Shown here piece by piece: positions 2,738-44,992 of a stretch of 64,000 bases of DNA. The DNA is from Oscillospiraceae bacterium (lineage in GTDB: Bacteria > Bacillota_I > Bacilli_A > Erysipelotrichales > Erysipelotrichaceae). The notes below the pieces were generated by a model, which was not told where the DNA came from, did no database searches, and saw only the letters and a list, made by a program, of their open reading frames with translations. The stretch lies in the NCBI GenBank assembly GCA_963654705.1, contig CAVKAO010000002.1, positions 16,806-80,805 on the forward strand, in the 5' to 3' direction. The position numbers and the translations under genes are program-made. How positions within the stretch are numbered: the first letter of the stretch is position 1; each line of letters begins with the position of its first letter.

Positions 2738-3534
2738 AAATATATTTTAGATAATATCGATAGTGTAAGCATAAACATAGACCCAAAAATAAAAACAAAA
2801 TCCTTAAAGGTATACTTTAAAACATGATACCTAGTTCTTTCTTTATCAGGCACATAGCCTCTTGCTTCCATGGCATCAGCCAATTCATAAGCTCTTTGAA
2901 AGGCCACCGTAAATAAAGGAATGATTAAAGACAATATCGCATTAATCTTTTCACTAAACTTGCCTTCCTCAAAATCAACACCTCTTGATTTTTGAGAGTT
3001 CATGATTCTAATTGTTTCCTCAATAATTGTGGGAATAAATCTTAAGGCGATAGAAATCATCATCGCTACCTCATGATAAGGAAAATGAAAAACTCTAAGA
3101 GGAGATAATAATTGTTCTATCCCAAGTGTCATATCAAGCGGTTTTGTAGTAGCTGTTAAACATGTTGTAACATTTACCATCAATAATAATCTAACTACTA
3201 TGAACAAAGTATTAAATATTGCATCACTATAGATATCAAAGCCAAATAAATTAATTAAAACATAGCCTGTTTTTACCGTAAGGCAATTGACAATCAATAG
3301 AAATACCATCATGAAAATAGTTGGTTTAAATGTTTTTAGTATCAACGATAGTTTTATTTTAGCCATAAGAACCACAAATAAAATAACAATCGCCAACACT
3401 AAATACATCCACCATGAGCTAGGTACAAATATTGCAATTATCATCAAGAACATAGCTATTAATTTAGCTCTTGGATCTAGACGATGAATAATTGAATCAA
3501 CTGGCATGTATTTTCCAAAAACCATATTATTCAT
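2734..3534 (-). CDS. ecfT: ECF transporter transmembrane (T) component
   Basis: 266-aa polytopic membrane ORF immediately after two ECF-type ATPases. It has the CbiQ/EcfT-like cytoplasmic coupling region (ALRFIPT...SQKSRG). Confidence 0.85.
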   Translation of the reverse strand: MNNMVFGKYMPVDSIIHRLDPRAKLIAMFLMIIAIFVPSSWWMYLVLAIVILFVVLMAKIKLSLILKTFKPTIFMMVFLLIVNCLTVKTGYVLINLFGFDIYSDAIFNTLFIVVRLLLMVNVTTCLTATTKPLDMTLGIEQLLSPLRVFHFPYHEVAMMISIALRFIPTIIEETIRIMNSQKSRGVDFEEGKFSEKINAILSLIIPLFTVAFQRAYELADAMEARGYVPDKERTRYHVLKYTFKDFVFIFGSMFMLTLSILSKIYL

Positions 3535-8542: not shown

Positions 8543-8640
8543 CATATTCTCCTTTCTTTGATATAGACTCGCCATTAAGGTGCTATGCTTATAACCTTTT
8601 CTGTGCGGTTGAAACCCAATATGGGAGACAACGTATATAT
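8543..8640 (-). promoter_or_regulatory. possible L21 ribosomal-protein leader plus extended -10 promoter (TGGTACTAT)
   Basis: About 95 nt of structured-looking 5' UTR lies upstream of rplU. The assignment is positional only, and I could not verify it against the Rfam L21_leader model. Confidence 0.3.
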
Positions 8641-37806: not shown

Positions 37807-39063
37807 ATGGAAAAAATATATATGTGTATCGATCTTAAATCCTTTTACGCTTCTGTTGAATGTGCCGAAAGAGGATTAGATCCTTTTAAAATAAATCTTG
37901 TTGTAGCCGATCCAAGCAGAGGACAAGGGGCTATCACCCTAGCAGCTAGTCCAGCAATTAAAAAATTAGGTGTTAAAAGTAGAGGCCGACTTTTTGAAAT
38001 ACCAAAGAATATTGAATATATTATCGCTAAACCAAGAATGTCTTTGTATATGGAATATTCAGCTAGAATATATAAGATTATTCTTAAATATATTAGCAGC
38101 GAAGACATCTATGTTTATTCAATTGATGAATGCTTCATTGATGCCTCTCCCTATTTAAAACTGTATAAGATGTCTGTAAAAGATTTAGCCAAGCTGATTT
38201 TAAAAGATATCTTTAATAGCACAGCTATCACAGCTACCGTTGGTATTGGGACCAATCTATTTCTTAGTAAAGTTGCTTTAGATATAACAGCTAAACATGT
38301 AGAAGATAACATTGGCTATTTAGATGAAGATGTTTTTAAACAAACACTTTGGCACCATACCCCTCTTACTGATTTTTGGATGATTGGAATAGGAACGGTG
38401 AATAGACTACAAAGACTGGGTATTAAGGATTTATATGGTGTTGCCCACTATGATAAAACGATTCTAGAAAAAGTTTTTGGTATAAATGCTAGGATTTTAT
38501 ACGATCACGCTTGGGGAAAAGAAGAAACACAAATTAGTGATATTAAACAATACGTTCCAAAAGGCAGTTCATTATCTAATTCACAAATCCTTTTTGAAGA
38601 CTACAACTGCGAAGATGCTTATTTGGTATTAAAGGAAATGGTTGAATTAAATACTTTAAATATGCGTAATAAGCATGTAGTATCAAATCACATTTCCTTG
38701 TATATTGGCTATTCAAAGGATGTTATAAAGCCTGTTAATGTATCTAAAAAAATTGATAATACTACCAATTCTAATAAGATACTATCTCAAGAATTTAAAA
38801 AGTTATATGAAAAAGCAGTAAACAAAAATTATCCAATTAGAAAAATAGGAATAAGCTTTTCTAATGTAAAAGATGAATATTTTGAACAATATAATCTATT
38901 TATTGATCAAGATAAAGTTGAAGAAGAAAGAAAAATACAGGATGCCTTTATCACTGTTCAAAAAAAGTATGGTAAAAACGCCATTCTTAAGGGATATAAC
39001 CTGCTAGATAAGGCAACAACAATGAAAAGAAATACACTTATAGGAGGTCACAATGCAAAGTAG
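37807..39063 (+). CDS. Y-family (UmuC/ImpB-type) translesion DNA polymerase
   Basis: CIDLKSFYASVE and SIDECFID catalytic motifs. 418 aa. Confidence 0.9.
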   Translation: MEKIYMCIDLKSFYASVECAERGLDPFKINLVVADPSRGQGAITLAASPAIKKLGVKSRGRLFEIPKNIEYIIAKPRMSLYMEYSARIYKIILKYISSEDIYVYSIDECFIDASPYLKLYKMSVKDLAKLILKDIFNSTAITATVGIGTNLFLSKVALDITAKHVEDNIGYLDEDVFKQTLWHHTPLTDFWMIGIGTVNRLQRLGIKDLYGVAHYDKTILEKVFGINARILYDHAWGKEETQISDIKQYVPKGSSLSNSQILFEDYNCEDAYLVLKEMVELNTLNMRNKHVVSNHISLYIGYSKDVIKPVNVSKKIDNTTNSNKILSQEFKKLYEKAVNKNYPIRKIGISFSNVKDEYFEQYNLFIDQDKVEEERKIQDAFITVQKKYGKNAILKGYNLLDKATTMKRNTLIGGHNAK

Positions 39064-39358
39064 AGCGCATATTTTCCAAGCCTTTGATGCCCTTAGTGGT
39101 CATCGTGAGCTTTTAGAAAAACAAGAGGCTATTGAAGTGCCTAAAAGATACTTATCACAAGAAGATTACGAAAGCCTAGATAGCACTATTAAAGAAGTGG
39201 AAATAGGAAACAATGTTAGAGTTGTTTATTACGATAATGGTAAATATATTGAAAGAGTTGGTAGAGTAGCTAAGCTAAATTTCGATACCAAAATAATTCA
39301 AGTAGTAAAAACTAAAATTGATTTTAAAAACTTATTTGAAATACAAATTGTGAAGTAA
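39053..39358 (+). CDS. YolD-like accessory protein
   Basis: 101 aa. It overlaps the polymerase stop by 11 nt, and its size and position match yolD/yqzH-type partners of Gram-positive UmuC homologs. Confidence 0.6.
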   Translation: MQSRAHIFQAFDALSGHRELLEKQEAIEVPKRYLSQEDYESLDSTIKEVEIGNNVRVVYYDNGKYIERVGRVAKLNFDTKIIQVVKTKIDFKNLFEIQIVK

Positions 39359-39399: not shown

Positions 39400-39477
39400 T
39401 GGGGCGATTGATGGGACTCGAACCCACGAATGCCAGAGCCACAATCTGGTGTGTTAACCAACTTCACCACAACCGCC
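39400..39477 (-). tRNA. tRNA-His (anticodon GTG) with encoded G-1 and CCA
   Basis: Hand-folded as G-1, acceptor GCGGTTG/CAATCGC, anticodon stem CCAGA/TCTGG with loop TTGTGGC, T-arm GTGGG-TTCGAGT-CCCAT, discriminator C and CCA. Confidence 0.9.
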
Positions 39478-39533: not shown

Positions 39534-40229
39534 TTAGCCTTGCTTCTTGTCTTCAAGCTCTTTCTTTTTATAATGTAAGATGCCAAAATAGCCAATGACA
39601 GAAGTAACAAGCGCACCAATACAATCAATAATTAGATCGTCCATTGTATCTTGAAGAGCCAATCTTCCTATTAAATCAGTTCCATCTTCAAGTCTAAATT
39701 TTTGCATGTTTAATCCAAGTATGCCATCAAATGAGAATTCATATATTTCCCATAAAACGCCAATAGAAATCGCAAAGCAAAAAGCAAACAGGGCCACAAA
39801 GAATGGCGATAATTGAAGCTTAACAGTATCACTCTTGTTTAAAAAATTAACTACATCAAAACCTAATGATCCAAGCATTCCAGCTGAAAAAGCATGTAAT
39901 ACTGTATCCCAATGTTCAAAGCGATAATAAAACGATCTAACTTCGCCTAGTACTATTGCCGCATATAAAAATATCAAATAGGCAATAATTGTATTAGAAG
40001 GAATAGTTACATGAAACTTCTTGTATAAAAAACTTGGAAGGTTCATAGCTATAATACCCAATATACATTGTAGAAGCATCAAGACATAATCACTTTTTTG
40101 TCTTGTAAGTGTATTAACATCTTCGCTTGGCGCTCTTACTATCATTACAATCGAATAAATAATCGATATAATAAAGGCCGCAAGCACGAAATAATACAAA
40201 TTTTTTGTTTTAATTATTTTTTTCTTCAT
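39534..40229 (-). CDS. polytopic membrane protein, YjdF/DUF2238-like
   Basis: 231 aa with about 6 TM helices. The family assignment is from memory only. Confidence 0.4.
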   Translation of the reverse strand: MKKKIIKTKNLYYFVLAAFIISIIYSIVMIVRAPSEDVNTLTRQKSDYVLMLLQCILGIIAMNLPSFLYKKFHVTIPSNTIIAYLIFLYAAIVLGEVRSFYYRFEHWDTVLHAFSAGMLGSLGFDVVNFLNKSDTVKLQLSPFFVALFAFCFAISIGVLWEIYEFSFDGILGLNMQKFRLEDGTDLIGRLALQDTMDDLIIDCIGALVTSVIGYFGILHYKKKELEDKKQG

Positions 40230-40250: not shown

Positions 40251-40871
40251 TTAGGAAAATATTGAATAATACTCTGCCAAAAAATCAACAATGCTTTCTT
40301 TTTCTTCGTCAGTTAAAGTTCTTTCAGTTGCATCATGTCCATCAACAGTACCAGTATGGAAGTAAACAAGTTCACCATCCTTAACAAACAATAAAATTGG
40401 AACATAAGTCACTTTATCTTCATCTAAATAATCATAAATAAAATTATAGATTGTCTCAAATTCAGGATAGTTAAAGTTGTCATCATCATCCTTATATCTT
40501 AAGTCATTTTCTTTTGTACCATCTGGTCTAACATTTAAGGCATAAGTCATATTTAAAAGATCTTCTTTATCCTTTAAATAATCACTTACAATAGGACCAA
40601 GTTCCTTACACCAAGGGCACGCATCAAAGTACATATATAAGACAAATGTTTCCTTATTTTTAATCTTAAAAGCCGCATCACTTAAACTAATTTGATTATT
40701 TGCAATTAGATAACTAGCCTTATCTTCTTCATCACAAGTTTCAAGCCCACAAGCATTTGAACCTGATTCTTCAGAGTTAGTTTTCTCATCAGTTCTATCT
40801 TCAATAATTTCTTTATTTTGACAACCCACAAACATAAACAACACAAGTAATATTAATAATATTTTTTTCAT
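40251..40871 (-). CDS. thioredoxin-fold lipoprotein with CPWC active site
   Basis: It has a lipobox (LFMFVGC) and the CxxC motif DACPWCKELGP. Confidence 0.7.
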   Translation of the reverse strand: MKKILLILLVLFMFVGCQNKEIIEDRTDEKTNSEESGSNACGLETCDEEDKASYLIANNQISLSDAAFKIKNKETFVLYMYFDACPWCKELGPIVSDYLKDKEDLLNMTYALNVRPDGTKENDLRYKDDDDNFNYPEFETIYNFIYDYLDEDKVTYVPILLFVKDGELVYFHTGTVDGHDATERTLTDEEKESIVDFLAEYYSIFS

Positions 40872-41389
40872 TATTTCTTCTCCTTAATCTTTGCTGGAAC
40901 ACCAACTGCTGTAGCAAAATTTGGCACATCCTTTAAGACAACGGCATTAGCGCCAATATTAGCACCCATACCAATTGTAATATTTCCTAGCACTTTAGCG
41001 CCACAACCAATTGTAACATTGTTCATAATTGTTGGATGCCTTTTCCCTTTTTCACTACCTACACCGCCTAGTGTAACCCCATGAAACATTTTAACATCAT
41101 CGCCAATAATACTGGTTTCGCCAATTACCACTCCCATTCCATGATCTATAAATAATCCTTTTCCGATTTTAGCACCAGGATGTATTTCGATCCCGGTGAA
41201 AAATCTAGATAATTGTGATAATAATCTTGCTAAGAAAAAGAAATGAATATTATAGAAAAAATGTGCTATTCGATATACAAAGATAGCGTGAATACTAGGA
41301 TATAAGAGAATTATACTAAGTACATTTGTACTTGCGGGATCGCTTTTCTTAATATTCTCTACTTGTCTTTTAATATCACTAAATATCAT
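40871..41389 (-). CDS. cysE: serine O-acetyltransferase
   Basis: N-terminal DPA...YPS.HAI..YRIAH region followed by left-handed beta-helix hexapeptide repeats. It lies next to cysK. Confidence 0.85.
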
Positions 41390-41390
41390 A

Positions 41391-42317
41391 TTAATTAAAT
41401 AAGTCTAATGACAAATATCTATTACCTGTATCAGGTAAAATAACTACAATAGTTTTGCCGAAGTTCTCTTCCTTTTCAGCTAATTTCTTTGCAGCATAAA
41501 TAGCTGCACCACTTGAAATACCAACTAAAATACCTTCGCTATGAGCGATTTGTTTAGTGGTCAAAAAGGCATCCTCATTACTTACAGTGATGATTTCATC
41601 ATATATCTTAGTATCTAAAGTATTAGGAACAAAACCAGCTCCAATACCTTGAATCTTATGGGCACCAGCTACACCCTTACTTAAAACTGGAGAGCTTTCA
41701 GGTTCTACACCTACAACCTTAATATCTTTAATCTTTTCTTTTAAAAATTTGCCAGTACCACTAATTGTTCCACCAGTACCAATTCCAGAAACTAAAATAT
41801 CAACCTTGCCATCACTGTCTGCATAAATTTCAGGTCCAGTAGTTTCATAATGAGCCTTAGGGTTAGCCATATTTTCAAATTGGCCAGCAATTATAGAATT
41901 GCCAATTTGTTCCTTTAGTTCATTAGCCTTAGCAATAGCCCCCTTCATGCCCTTTGCACCTTCGGTTAAAATAACTTCTGCACCATATGCCTTCATTAAA
42001 GCAATTCTTTCTTTAGACATAGTCTCAGGCATTGTAATAATTAATTTATAGCCTCGACTAGCCGCAATCATTGCCAAACCAATTCCAGTATTACCGCTAG
42101 TTGGCTCAATAATTGTAGAACCAGGCTTCAATAAACCTTTTTCTTCATAGTCATCAATAATAGCTCTAGCAATACGATCTTTTACAGAACCACCAGGATT
42201 AAAATATTCTAGTTTGCCAACAATATGAGCTTTAATATTCTCTTGATTTTCATACTTTACAAATTCAACTAGTGGAGTATGACCAACTAGCTCACTTACA
42301 TTTTGTTTAATATTCAT
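41391..42317 (-). CDS. cysK: cysteine synthase A (O-acetylserine sulfhydrylase)
   Basis: PLP-lysine motif GGSVKDR, with GNTG and GTGGT loops. I trimmed the start to an ATG after the AGGAGG SD. The adjacent ATG at 42320 is equally possible. Confidence 0.9.
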
Positions 42318-42335
42318 CATTAACCCTCCTATAAA

Positions 42336-42440
42336 CAAAAAAAGGAATCTTCTTATCGAAGATTCCTAATGTAACACAATCAAAAAGCCGACAAGAAAAT
42401 TGTTATATTCGCATACCCCTCTTACAGCAACAACAATTTC
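42336..42440 (-). promoter_or_regulatory. three-helix transcription attenuator controlling cysK-cysE
   Basis: Three mutually exclusive pairings. Helix 1:2 is 42440-42430 with 42406-42396. The antiterminator is 42401-42388 with 42359-42346. The terminator is 42367-42358 with 42352-42343, followed by a T-run. Confidence 0.75.
42343..42367 (-). terminator. attenuator terminator AGGAATCTTC-GATAA-GAAGATTCCT plus T-run
   Basis: 10 perfect bp, a 5-nt loop and a run of T. It lies in the cysK 5' UTR just upstream of the SD. Confidence 0.8.
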
Positions 42441-42459
42441 TTAATGCAAAACTTTTCAT
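42403..42459 (-). CDS. cysteine leader peptide MKSFALRNCCCCKRGMRI
   Basis: My own translation. Four consecutive Cys codons TGT TGT TGC TGT occupy 42435-42424. It is embedded in the attenuator upstream of cysK. Confidence 0.75.
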   Translation of the reverse strand: MKSFALRNCCCCKRGMRI

Positions 42460-42465
42460 ACCACT

Positions 42466-42493
42466 AATATATCACTTTCAAAATTAATGTAAA
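42466..42493 (-). promoter_or_regulatory. candidate promoter TTTACA-16 nt-TATATT for the Cys leader
   Basis: The -10 ends 6 nt before the leader ATG, which implies a leaderless leader-peptide mRNA. Confidence 0.45.
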
Positions 42494-42499
42494 CAATTA

Positions 42500-43093
42500 T
42501 TATTCATATTTTGGCGAAATCTTATCTAGTAAGCCACTCTTCTTTAATCTAGGATATAGTGCGATATAAAGCAAAGAAGCGATAATAACAGCCAAAATTG
42601 CATTTACCGCAGTAGTTACAAATTTAGCTACAGCCAAGTATTTTACTGCCTTTTCCCCATTTCCTAAAATTACTAAATAATAAACATAAGAGAATAATGG
42701 TTCGCCAATACAGTTAAATAACATGCCAGCACCACTACTTAAAAAAGCAGCCTTTCTTAAATCTTTACCTGTCTTATTATTAATTTTTAATACTTTATGA
42801 GCTACAAGACCAGTTATAATACCGATACCTAATTTCAAAATGATTGTTTTAGGCGCTATTGTGATATAAACAGGATCTAATAAATCACCTACTCCCATGC
42901 CTATAGCTCCTGCTATACCACCAGGTAAGCCACCCAATAGTAAGGCTGCAAGTACACAAAATGTGTTTCCCAAATGAAATGAAGTATAACCAACTGGAGT
43001 TGGAATCTTTATTTGTAAAAAAGTAAAGGCCACATAACATAAGGCAGCCATTAAAGCTGTTATTGATAGTTTTAATACCGTTTTATCTTTCAT
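42500..43093 (-). CDS. ECF transporter substrate-specific (S) component, substrate unknown (possibly a B6 vitamer)
   Basis: About 197 aa, 6 TM helices and Gly-rich helices typical of S components. I trimmed the start to the ATG 6 nt after GGAGGG. It is divergent from a MocR/PdxR-like regulator. Confidence 0.65.
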   Translation of the reverse strand: MKDKTVLKLSITALMAALCYVAFTFLQIKIPTPVGYTSFHLGNTFCVLAALLLGGLPGGIAGAIGMGVGDLLDPVYITIAPKTIILKLGIGIITGLVAHKVLKINNKTGKDLRKAAFLSSGAGMLFNCIGEPLFSYVYYLVILGNGEKAVKYLAVAKFVTTAVNAILAVIIASLLYIALYPRLKKSGLLDKISPKYE

Positions 43094-43168
43094 ATACATC
43101 CCTCCAAAACAAAATTAGTATATAATCATATTGGCTATATTAAAATAACCAGATTTGAATAAATTTAT

Positions 43169-44533
43169 ATGACCAGATTAAAAGATCAGATACTATATTT
43201 AAACATCTATCAAGAATATGTAAATAAGATTAAAGGCGGTCTACTTAAAGCCAATGATAAATTGCCTAGTAAGCGAAACCTTGCGGATATTAAAAATGTT
43301 TCTTTAATCACAATTGAAAAAGCCTATGAGCAATTACTTCAAGAAGGCTATATCTATTCAATCGAAAAGAAGGGCTATTTCGTATCTAAAATAGATATTA
43401 TAAAAACAAACAAGGAAAATAAAACAATATTAGAAGACAAGAGAAAAAAATATCAAATTGATTTTACTAGCACTTCTAGTGGTAGTGATGTCTTCCCTTT
43501 TTCAACGTGGTCAAAAATAACTAGAAAAGTTATTTCTAGCTATTCTAATGAATTATTATCACCATGTAACTATAAAGGACATGATTCCTTAAGAAAGGCC
43601 ATTGCCCAACATTTAAATAGCTATTTAGGAATGAATGTATCTTATAGTCAAATAATTATATCAAGTGGCTCAGAAAGCTTATATTCGCAACTCATCAATC
43701 TTTTAGGAAGAGATAAAAGCTTTGCCCTAGAAGATCCAGGGCACAAAAGTATTGCCAATACATATAAAGAATACGATGTAAATTACAACTATATCCCCCT
43801 AGATGAACAAGGTATAAGAATAGATATCCTAAATAAAGTTAAACCAAACGTTATTCATGTATCAACTAATCATCATTATCCAAGCGGCATCACTATGCCT
43901 ATTAAAAGACGATATGAACTTTTAAGATATGCCTATGATAATGATGCGATTATCATTGAGGATGACTATGACATTGAATTAAGGCTTAAGGGAAAACCTA
44001 TTTTACCGCTATATTCTTTAGATGATAGTCATGTTATATACATGAATACCTTCTCCATTACTCTAGCACCATCATTTAGAATAGCTTATATGATATTGCC
44101 AGAAAAACTACTTCAATCATATGAAAAAAGGATGGCCAATATAGCTTGTACAGTTCCTGTACTAGATCAATTAATACTAGCTGATTTTATTAAAGAAGGT
44201 TACTTTGAAAGACTGTTAAATCGCAAGAAAAAGAAATATCGTGAAATTAGAGAAGAACTTTTAAATAGTTTAAAAGAAAACAAAGATATTGAAATAAAAG
44301 AAGCTGACATGGGCTTACATTTGCTTATTAAATACCCTTATAAAATTAGCGATAAAAAAGTAGAAGAAATCGCCAAAGTAATGAATATAAAAATATATAC
44401 CTTATCTCGTTTTTTAAATAAAGAAAAAGATACTCATACTCTTTTAATCAAGTATACAAGTATCGATAAAAATAATTTAGATGAAGCAATCAAACAATTA
44501 AATAGACTATTAAATAAGATTAAAACTATTTAA
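43169..44533 (+). CDS. MocR/PdxR-type regulator (GntR wHTH fused to a fold-type I aminotransferase-like domain)
   Basis: It has an N-terminal GntR HTH (LPSKRNLADIKNVSLITIEKAYEQLLQEGYIYS) and a 350-aa aminotransferase-like C-terminus. Confidence 0.8.
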   Translation: MTRLKDQILYLNIYQEYVNKIKGGLLKANDKLPSKRNLADIKNVSLITIEKAYEQLLQEGYIYSIEKKGYFVSKIDIIKTNKENKTILEDKRKKYQIDFTSTSSGSDVFPFSTWSKITRKVISSYSNELLSPCNYKGHDSLRKAIAQHLNSYLGMNVSYSQIIISSGSESLYSQLINLLGRDKSFALEDPGHKSIANTYKEYDVNYNYIPLDEQGIRIDILNKVKPNVIHVSTNHHYPSGITMPIKRRYELLRYAYDNDAIIIEDDYDIELRLKGKPILPLYSLDDSHVIYMNTFSITLAPSFRIAYMILPEKLLQSYEKRMANIACTVPVLDQLILADFIKEGYFERLLNRKKKKYREIREELLNSLKENKDIEIKEADMGLHLLIKYPYKISDKKVEEIAKVMNIKIYTLSRFLNKEKDTHTLLIKYTSIDKNNLDEAIKQLNRLLNKIKTI

Positions 44534-44927
44534 GCTTTAATTTTTCAATTAGTGCTTCTTGTAAGACGTTAGAGAAATTCACATTATTTTTAATGGCAAC
44601 ATCATTTAGCCATTCAGGAATACTTAGTGTTTTCTTAATAGCTTTATTTTTATACTTTTTGCCATACTCAAGAGAATCATATTCTACAACTAGTACTAAA
44701 GCATCCCCATTATTTTTAATTACATCAAACACATTAGATGGTTTATTAATAACTCTATCACATATATCATCGCTTTTATCTAGATACATTCCCAATGCCT
44801 CTTTGGCATTATTAAAGGCATCTTGTAAATCATTACCTCTTGTAAAACAGCCTTCTAAATCCGGAAATTCTACCCAACAAGAACCATTTTCATCATGAAA
44901 TACTGCAGGATAATAAATCAAAGACAT
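44526..44927 (-). CDS. hicB: HicB-family antitoxin (no hicA partner present)
   Basis: It has an N-terminal HicB fold (YPAVFHDENGSCWVEFPDLEGCFTRGNDLQDAFNNAKEAL) and a C-terminal RHH-like tail. I trimmed the start to the ATG after an AAAGGAG SD. Confidence 0.7.
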   Translation of the reverse strand: MSLIYYPAVFHDENGSCWVEFPDLEGCFTRGNDLQDAFNNAKEALGMYLDKSDDICDRVINKPSNVFDVIKNNGDALVLVVEYDSLEYGKKYKNKAIKKTLSIPEWLNDVAIKNNVNFSNVLQEALIEKLKLK

Positions 44928-44992
44928 ATATACTCCTTTAATAACGCCCACATTATAATACATAATATTATGTATTGCTTAAGAATATTCTG

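Follow-up and report, generated by a model that had tools for sequence, protein, structure and literature searches.

Leader-peptide attenuation is a textbook form of transcription-translation coupling and is rare in the Bacillota, which mostly use T-boxes, riboswitches and repressors. Here we describe a leader upstream of the cysteine biosynthesis genes cysK and cysE in a stretch of 64,000 nucleotides (the window) from an uncultured member of the Erysipelotrichaceae (GenBank assembly GCA_963654705.1, contig CAVKAO010000002.1, positions 16,806 to 80,805 of the forward strand). The leader contains a short upstream open reading frame (uORF) with consecutive cysteine codons, which is followed by an intrinsic terminator. 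Judging from its sequence and modelled folds, we consider it highly probable that this leader is a Cys-tRNA-sensing, ribosome-mediated transcription attenuator of an operon composed of cysK, cysE and genes for a thioredoxin-like lipoprotein and a DUF2238 protein.

The closest classical systems are the trpL, hisL, leuL, thrL and pheL leaders of Escherichia coli. The window leader shares with them a short uORF containing a run of codons for the amino acid that the pathway makes, three overlapping helices with a U-run, a stop codon from which a terminating ribosome would cover segment 2, and the expectation of termination when the uORF is not translated. It differs from the trpL type in its amino acid (cysteine), in its Bacillota host and in its uORF, which has no Shine-Dalgarno sequence (SD) and is apparently leaderless. 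The predicted antiterminator of the window leader also pairs with the 5′ arm, the loop and the 3′ arm of the terminator, whereas the textbook antiterminator pairs with the 5′ arm only. The window leader shows no sequence similarity to these elements and no match to an Rfam leader family.

Leader peptides with cysteine codons have been reported in several other phyla. In Mycobacterium smegmatis, leaderless short open reading frames (sORFs) encoding poly-Cys act as translational attenuators, which unmask a downstream ribosome-binding site (RBS) and constitute a "Cys ribulon" (Canestrari et al., bioRxiv 10.1101/834739), and mycobacterial and actinobacterial Cys leader peptides had been predicted earlier (PMC1262725). 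The window leader resembles these elements in its probably leaderless RUG start, its consecutive Cys codons, its location upstream of a cysteine operon and, presumably, in the sensing of Cys-tRNA by ribosome stalling. However, the mycobacterial case that has been characterised exerts translational control by sequestering the RBS, and no conserved terminator hairpins were detected there, whereas the window leader has a covarying terminator and a free SD; the two belong to different phyla and are not homologous. In Deinococcus deserti, a leaderless peptide of 10 amino acids with two Cys residues precedes cysS, with the transcription start site (TSS) mapped at the AUG (PMC4007540), and in the Rhodobacterales the uORFC-8-2 motif is found before cysS together with a terminator (PMC8632094). 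Both have Cys codons in a short leader ORF before a terminator-like structure, and in uORFC-8-2, as in the window leader, the Cys codons lie inside the first stem and a U-run ends the element. These two elements precede cysteinyl-tRNA synthetase genes and contain two Cys codons, whereas the leader described here precedes cysK-cysE and has three or four; the lineages are unrelated and no sequence similarity is present.

For a long time Firmicutes were believed to lack leader peptides; a His leader was then predicted in bacilli (PMC2965389), and Listeria has an ILV leader (PMC5864092). The Bacillota have been classed as organisms with runaway transcription, in which RNA polymerase outpaces the ribosomes (PMC13323073). 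The leader was first recognized in an earlier note, which was made from the DNA letters alone and regarded such control of cysteine genes as unexpected in low-GC Gram-positive bacteria. This is correct in that leader-peptide attenuation is rare in Firmicutes, but the surprise is reduced by the Cys leaders known from Actinobacteria, Deinococcus and Rhodobacterales and by the attenuators that do occur in Firmicutes. Our literature search, which covered few subscription journals and whose negative result is therefore weak evidence, retrieved no earlier account of cysK-cysE being controlled in the Bacillota by a terminator switch with a Cys leader peptide. In this phylum the same purpose, the coupling of cysK and cysE expression to cysteine or sulfur supply, is served by CymR (Rrf2 family), Cys T-boxes and S-boxes, whereas the window promoter and leader have no TAGGA-type palindrome, adjacent Rrf2 gene, or T-box or SAM-I match.

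Sequence anatomy of the leader

All elements of the leader are located on the minus strand, and positions within it are numbered from the A of the uORF ATG (n1, window position 42459). A candidate promoter (42466-42493) consists of a -35 box TTTACA (42493-42488), a 16-nt spacer and an extended -10 box TG-a-TATATT (42474-42466), giving a 10/12 match in addition to the TG extension. The gap between the -10 box and the uORF ATG is 6 nt, and no SD precedes the ATG. Since a gap of 6-7 nt from an extended -10 box to a start codon places the predicted TSS on or beside the start-codon purine, transcription is predicted to begin at the A of the uORF ATG or at an adjacent base. The uORF (42403-42459) has 18 codons and a TAA stop, extends from the ATG at 42459-42457 to the TAA at 42405-42403, and encodes the putative leader peptide MKSFALRNCCCCKRGMRI, which is probably translated from a leaderless transcript. 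The proposed sensor is a run of four consecutive Cys codons, TGT TGT TGC TGT (42424-42435). Both the 18-codon frame and the Cys run had been given in the earlier note at these positions, and reading of the minus strand bears them out. A scan of both strands showed that a four-Cys-codon run in a short ORF is unique within the 64-kb window, and none of the other Cys-run sORFs of the window, which might have formed a "Cys ribulon", has a promoter and terminator context.

Three mutually overlapping helices can be drawn in this leader. Segment 1 (n20-30, GAAATTGTTGT, 42430-42440) covers Cys codons 1 and 2 and forms the 5′ strand of the anti-antiterminator helix 1:2 in minimum free energy (MFE) folds. 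Segment 2 (42379-42406), which was defined from folds and alignment, has two alternative pairings. In one of them, n54-64, which spans the TAA stop, pairs with segment 1; this helix 1:2 (n20-30 with n54-64) has 11 bp including 2 GU pairs, exactly as the earlier note had proposed, and is present together with the terminator in the unconstrained MFE fold. In the other, n59-72 and the U-run n74-81 serve as the 5′ strand of the antiterminator. The 3′ strand of the antiterminator (n90-97 and n101-114, 42346-42370) emerged from the MFE fold in which a model ribosome occupied the Cys codons. The stretch n101-114, made up of the top of the terminator 5′ arm, the GAUAA loop and the 3′ arm, forms a helix of 14 bp including 3 GU pairs with n59-72, and an inner helix joins n90-97, in the terminator 5′ arm, to the U-run n74-81. 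The first of these two helices had been described in the earlier note with the same length and GU content, and it is indeed the MFE helix when the Cys codons are masked in a constrained fold; the antiterminator drawn there was nevertheless too short, as the inner helix had been missed. The complete antiterminator (n59-81 with n90-114) shares bases with both terminator arms, and the two structures are mutually exclusive.

The intrinsic terminator was detected by a terminator scan at 42336-42367 as AGGAATCTTC-GATAA-GAAGATTCCT (42367-42343) followed by a T-run. It has a 10-bp stem, a 5-nt loop and six T residues (seven including the last T of the stem), in agreement with the hairpin that the earlier note placed before the cysK AGGAGG. 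This SD (42325-42330) is unpaired in the predicted MFE and centroid folds. The fold of the whole leader has a z score of -2.3 relative to dinucleotide shuffles.

Conservation of the candidate leader peptide

Related leaders were collected from several sources, giving a comparison set of the window and nine further distinct sequences, whose CysK proteins are 70-92% identical to that of the window. A cysK-based scan with one genome per GTDB species yielded 80 loci; a Cys run was not a search condition. The leader was present in two of these 80 loci, which were the closest ones (L001 with 85% and L002 with 81% CysK identity). Both have a Cys run of at least three codons at the same distance upstream of cysK (CCCC in each case) and align with the window over the whole leader. 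Six more leaders were obtained from contigs encoding CysK homologues with 75-92% identity, and one (L103) came from a metagenome pattern scan. The DNA pattern used in that scan, AGAAAYTGYTGYTGYTGYAAR, was discarded as a search tool: it matched at least 120 loci, nearly all by chance or out of frame, with L103 the one true homologue among the matches listed, and its specificity is too low, since the same letters can be read as frames rich in Leu or Val. In the human-gut contigs L101, L109, L120, L127, L142, L163, L178, L184 and L186, the Cys-run pattern matched one conserved 51-codon frame, QCYFFQIFRYLIQEQLTKFNRIAYFRNCCCCKITLCTINHSKNKNSKDWTD, which probably results from reading a conserved gene out of frame or in antisense.

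The nine additional leader peptides are MKSLALRNCCCCKEDMRI (L205), MKSLRLRNCCCCKEYMHI (L001), KSLETRNCCCCKEYMQI (L002, with a GTG start), MNYMLTRNCCCCKEYMQI (L103), MKSFKLRNCCCRRGIYI (L207), MKSFKLRNCCCRRGIRI (L212), MKSLTLRKDCCCCTGGTL (L208), MKSFDLRKDCCCCTGGTL (L209) and MKYMSTRNCCCCKVYTLI (L213). All ten sequences keep the uORF frame, a length of 17-18 codons and a stop codon within segment 2, and all have a run of three or four Cys codons with synonymous TGT/TGC changes. An extended -10 box (TGnTATATT-like) ends 6-7 nt before the ATG or GTG in each of the ten, with no SD in between, which supports the suggestion of the earlier note that the uORF has no SD and is leaderless; we regard a leaderless start of the leader peptide as likely on the basis of this arrangement. 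By comparison, the N- and C-terminal residues of the peptides are variable (KSFAL, KSLRL, KSLET, NYMLT, KYMST and others). Retention of the Cys run combined with drift of the flanking residues is the pattern expected of an ORF that acts as a sensor, as opposed to one that encodes a functional peptide.

This pattern bears directly on the possibility that a functional micropeptide rich in Cys, such as a metal-binding or redox-active one, is made from the uORF and co-expressed with cysK, and that the RNA structures are incidental or a plain terminator. Small Cys-rich peptides do exist, and the motif RNCCCCK is conserved in most of the sequences. However, residues beyond the Cys run vary freely, the number of Cys residues is three or four, and the peptide has only 17-18 amino acids with no signal or other recognisable features. 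Moreover, at the nucleotide level the best conserved parts are segment 2, which is non-coding (UUUUCUUGUCG), and the loop of the terminator. We consider this explanation extremely unlikely, although a dual function of the uORF is conceivable.

The leaders show 62-93% nucleotide identity to that of the window, which is similar to the 71-84% of cysK overall and mostly higher than the 53-64% of the synonymous third positions of cysK. The L208 and L209 leaders (62-63%) are barely above the third-position identity of cysK. The genome labels of two members of the set are at odds with their sequences: L001 (CAVDDT010000003.1) is labelled Paratractidigestivibacter sp. and L002 (CAVBAX010000017.1) Methanomethylophilaceae archaeon, but the GC content of both contigs is 31-32%, and they have the gene order and the leader in common with the Erysipelotrichaceae window. 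These contigs are probably mis-binned in their metagenome-assembled genomes (MAGs).

Terminator covariation and alternative folds

In the alignment of the ten sequences, the terminator shows compensatory double changes in seven of its ten stem pairs, and 99% of the alignment cells are paired, compared to 51-61% when the partner strand is slid. Neither the observed covariation score nor the number of pairs changed on both sides was reached in any of 500 shuffles. For helix 1:2, 94-100% of cells are paired; this helix hardly varies, and covariation is uninformative there. The antiterminator helix n59-72 with n101-114 is paired in 94% of cells (43-62% in slid controls), the inner helix n74-81 with n90-97 also in 94%, including one compensatory change from U-A to C-G, and the full antiterminator with its inner helix in 94% (43-68% when slid; for its 3′ strand the slid controls reached 47-68%). 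All variation within n59-72 with n101-114 consists of one-sided changes between U-A and U·G.

Two further features of the terminator are in line with a second pairing partner. In the 3′-arm columns shared with the antiterminator all changes are between A and G, transitions that preserve pairing to a U-rich strand, whereas the outer, unshared terminator pairs have also undergone transversions. The GAUAA loop is nearly invariant, which would be unusual for a plain terminator and is expected if the loop pairs.

The leaders were then folded with and without masking, as the earlier note had recommended. When a ribosome was placed on the Cys codons, a long interrupted hairpin formed by n59-81 and n90-114 was the MFE structure in 7 of the 10 sequences, and the free energy difference (ddG, antiterminator minus terminator) ranged from -7.5 to +3.3 kcal/mol (n = 10). 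When the upstream segment was shuffled, ddG was +5 to +10 kcal/mol, and the observed value was reached by 0-1% of shuffles. In these models the antiterminator is energetically competitive with the terminator in all ten sequences. With a ribosome modelled at the stop codon, the terminator formed in 10/10. Thus, masking of the Cys codons favours the antiterminator and masking of the stop codon the terminator, and the modelled ribosome positions flip the fold in the way that had been proposed. Since the inner helix can nucleate before the 3′ arm has been transcribed, it also removes the kinetic worry attached to an antiterminator that pairs with the 3′ arm only.

These results help to evaluate two explanations that leave the hairpin in place and give it another role. 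According to the first, the terminator merely ends the ECF S-component gene located upstream, cysK is transcribed constitutively from a separate promoter, and the Cys-run uORF is fortuitous or non-functional. Indeed, no more than 40 nt separate the stop codon of the S-component gene (42500) from the uORF, the gene is followed by no other terminator, and transcripts reading through from it would end at this hairpin. Yet the promoter lies upstream of the terminator, so that all cysK transcripts initiated there must cross it, and the leader is conserved above the synonymous sites of cysK. The Cys run, frame, length and stop position have also been kept over ten diverged sequences with synonymous changes, and a competitive antiterminator is present in every one of them; we find this explanation exceedingly improbable. 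According to the second, the leader is a translational attenuator of the mycobacterial type, in which a stalled ribosome exposes the cysK RBS and termination is not the regulated step. The layout of a leaderless poly-Cys sORF upstream of cysteine genes, as in Ms5788A of M. smegmatis (10.1101/834739), is compatible with it. However, the unpaired state of the cysK AGGAGG in the predicted folds argues against RBS sequestration, a covarying hairpin with a U-run stands between the uORF and the SD, and it is the terminator, rather than the SD, that the alternative fold engages. Translational control of this kind is very unlikely here.

Known RNA families and cysK regulation outside the clade

A search of positions 41800-43300 against Rfam with permissive filters (E ≤ 10) revealed no T-box, SAM or other family, and the only matches were two spurious snoRNA hits (E 0.3-1.4). 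At Rfam gathering thresholds, the window and 20 related loci gave nothing at the leader, with no T-box or SAM-I match in L001 or L002 either; the hits elsewhere were tRNAs and an L21 leader. We therefore reject a known riboswitch or T-box (RF00230, SAM-I RF00162) as the identity of this element; the covariance-model hit that would have spoken for one did not appear. Together with the conservation of the uORF, the covariation of the terminator and the modelled fold switching, this supports the leader-peptide attenuator proposed in the earlier note.

It could still be supposed that the leader acts as an RNA switch which binds a ligand or a protein (a novel riboswitch, a tRNA-binding element or a protein-dependent antiterminator) whose Cys codons are not read, given that terminator/antiterminator architecture is common to such systems and usual in the Bacillota. 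In addition to the lack of an Rfam match, the 117-nt leader is too short for a T-box and has simple helices only, with no conserved complex aptamer-like fold, and a switch of this kind would leave the conserved in-frame start, Cys run, stop codon and spacing from -10 box to AUG unexplained. We assign it a very small probability and retain attenuation by a leader peptide as the preferred interpretation.

The distribution of the leader is restricted. A covariance model of the leader, applied to the window and 83 loci (including 81 non-clade cysK loci), found the window copy alone; the remaining matches were weak (E ≥ 0.002) and located downstream of cysK. In cysK loci outside the clade (up to 74% identity) the leader is absent. 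Instead, palindromes of the TAGGA...TCCTA type are located at or just after the -10 box of cysK in L214 (1427-1500), L215, L216, L012, L018, L019, L053, L058 and L065, and several of these cysK genes, those of L012 and L053 included, sit behind an Rrf2-family gene, which is directly upstream in L214, L215 and L216; some other non-clade cysK genes sit straight behind another gene. In the window, no TAGG-containing palindrome was found at 42460-42530 and no Rrf2 gene nearby. The palindromes and the Rrf2 gene point to CymR-type repression in the nearest non-clade cysK relatives, so the leader appears to take the place of Rrf2/CymR operators in its clade, and the same operon is apparently under different regulation in neighbouring lineages. 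We lean towards the view that, in a clade of uncultured gut and rumen Erysipelotrichaceae, a leaderless, four-Cys leader-peptide terminator/antiterminator switch has taken over from CymR-type repression of cysK-cysE.

Proposed attenuation mechanism

In the model suggested by these data, transcription would start at or beside the A of the uORF AUG from the extended -10 promoter, and the 18-codon peptide would be translated from the leaderless 5′ end. When cysteine is plentiful and Cys-tRNA(Cys) ample, the ribosome would cross the four Cys codons and reach the UAA inside segment 2. Segment 2 would then be blocked by the ribosome, or by helix 1:2 re-formed after its release, so that the terminator and U-run could form and RNA polymerase would halt 6 nt before the cysK SD. 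When cysteine is scarce, the ribosome would stall on the Cys codons in segment 1, leaving n59-81 free to zip with n90-114: the U-run would first capture the terminator 5′ arm, and UUUUCUUGUCGG would then take the top of this arm, the loop and the 3′ arm. The terminator would be blocked and cysK-cysE transcribed. In the absence of translation, helix 1:2 and the terminator would be expected to form, resulting in termination. One may also speculate that a conserved GRCUUUUU-G, located about 10 nt after helix 1:2, acts as a pause site.

Several points weigh against this model. The analysis directly establishes the sequence anatomy, its conservation, the covariation of the terminator and the energetic competitiveness of two folds; from these we infer where the TSS lies, that translation is leaderless, that stalling and pausing occur and what the regulatory outcome is. 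The ten sequences represent one narrow clade and are non-independent. Double compensatory changes are nearly absent from helix 1:2 and from the antiterminator, and in a column shuffle the antiterminator performed no better than chance. The latter result is due to its U-rich 5′ strand, which pairs with any purine, and support for the antiterminator consequently comes from energetics and the slid-partner control. In three of the ten sequences (L001, L208 and L209) the terminator is still the MFE structure in the stalled state, and read-through there would have to be kinetic. Given the runaway transcription of the Bacillota (PMC13323073), synchrony of ribosome and polymerase over approximately 120 nt is non-trivial. 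We also know of no demonstrated case of leaderless translation in this lineage.

Operon, neighbouring genes and other loci

The first gene under the proposed control is cysK (41391-42320, minus strand), which encodes cysteine synthase A (TIGR01139, 437 bits against a cutoff of 351). Its conserved start is probably the second ATG at 42317, and CysK relatives begin with MNIKQ and have 308 amino acids. An identical CysK protein is also encoded on contig CAVDGD010000066.1 of GCA_963608025.1. In the window, cysK is followed on the same strand by cysE (40871-41389), which encodes serine O-acetyltransferase (TIGR01172, 240 bits, cutoff 211), by a lipoprotein gene with a weak thioredoxin-like or PedC-BrcD thiol-disulfide isomerase match (40251-40871) and by a gene for a DUF2238 membrane protein (39534-40229). 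The genes of the operon tail abut or are 21 nt apart, and the lipoprotein and DUF2238 genes are apparently co-transcribed with cysK-cysE. The same gene order is found in L001, L002, L205, L208 and L209.

Upstream of the leader, the S-component gene (42500-43099, minus strand) ends 6 nt before the leader -35 box and 40 nt before the uORF ATG. No separate terminator belongs to this gene, so its transcripts, too, would stop at the attenuator hairpin. Divergent to it is a gene for a PdxR-like MocR regulator (43169-44533, plus strand; NF052282, 468 bits). The S component and the PdxR-like protein are probably a vitamin B6 uptake module beside the CysK enzyme, which depends on pyridoxal phosphate. 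L103, L205 and L081 have retained this synteny, and in L208 the S-component gene is present too. Other features of the window include a HicB-like antitoxin gene (44526-44963, minus strand), a tRNA directly downstream of the cys operon (39403-39476, minus strand), a Y-family DNA polymerase with a YolD-like partner (37807-39358, plus strand) and an L21 leader (RF00559, 40.5 bits; 8555-8620, minus strand). The Obg protein of the window has 82-85% identity to proteins labelled Erysipelotrichaceae bacterium or Solobacterium sp., which together with the L21 leader points to a low-GC Bacillota host from the Erysipelotrichaceae.

A different arrangement was observed in L045 (JAFUSH010000049.1, positions 2858-3000), a MAG with 36% GC labelled Alphaproteobacteria. 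This locus has an SD-led uORF, MTNLFMNIVCCPSAVNRRQVRICD, with two tandem Cys codons, followed by a GC-rich hairpin and U8 right before cysK, and its leader fold has a z score of -5.0. It has no sequence similarity to the window leader and looks like an independent Cys leader upstream of cysK.

Implications

The leader introduces no new principle, as its logic is classical and both Cys codons and leaderless starts have precedents in other phyla, but the way in which these ingredients are combined seems to be new, as do the operon controlled and the lineage of the host. If the proposed mechanism is correct, it would be the first leader-peptide transcription attenuator of cysteine biosynthesis in the Bacillota, and a natural instance of a 70S ribosome that loads straight onto a 5′ AUG and has to keep up with RNA polymerase, in a phylum whose transcription is generally regarded as uncoupled ("runaway"). 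A Cys-specific attenuator of about 120 nt could show whether ribosomes govern termination in the Bacillota, and whether leaderless initiation enables them to do so. It would also provide an example of regulatory turnover, with the same operon passing from a CymR operator to a leader peptide over a short evolutionary distance, and the element would aid the annotation of cysteine regulons in uncultured gut and rumen bacteria.

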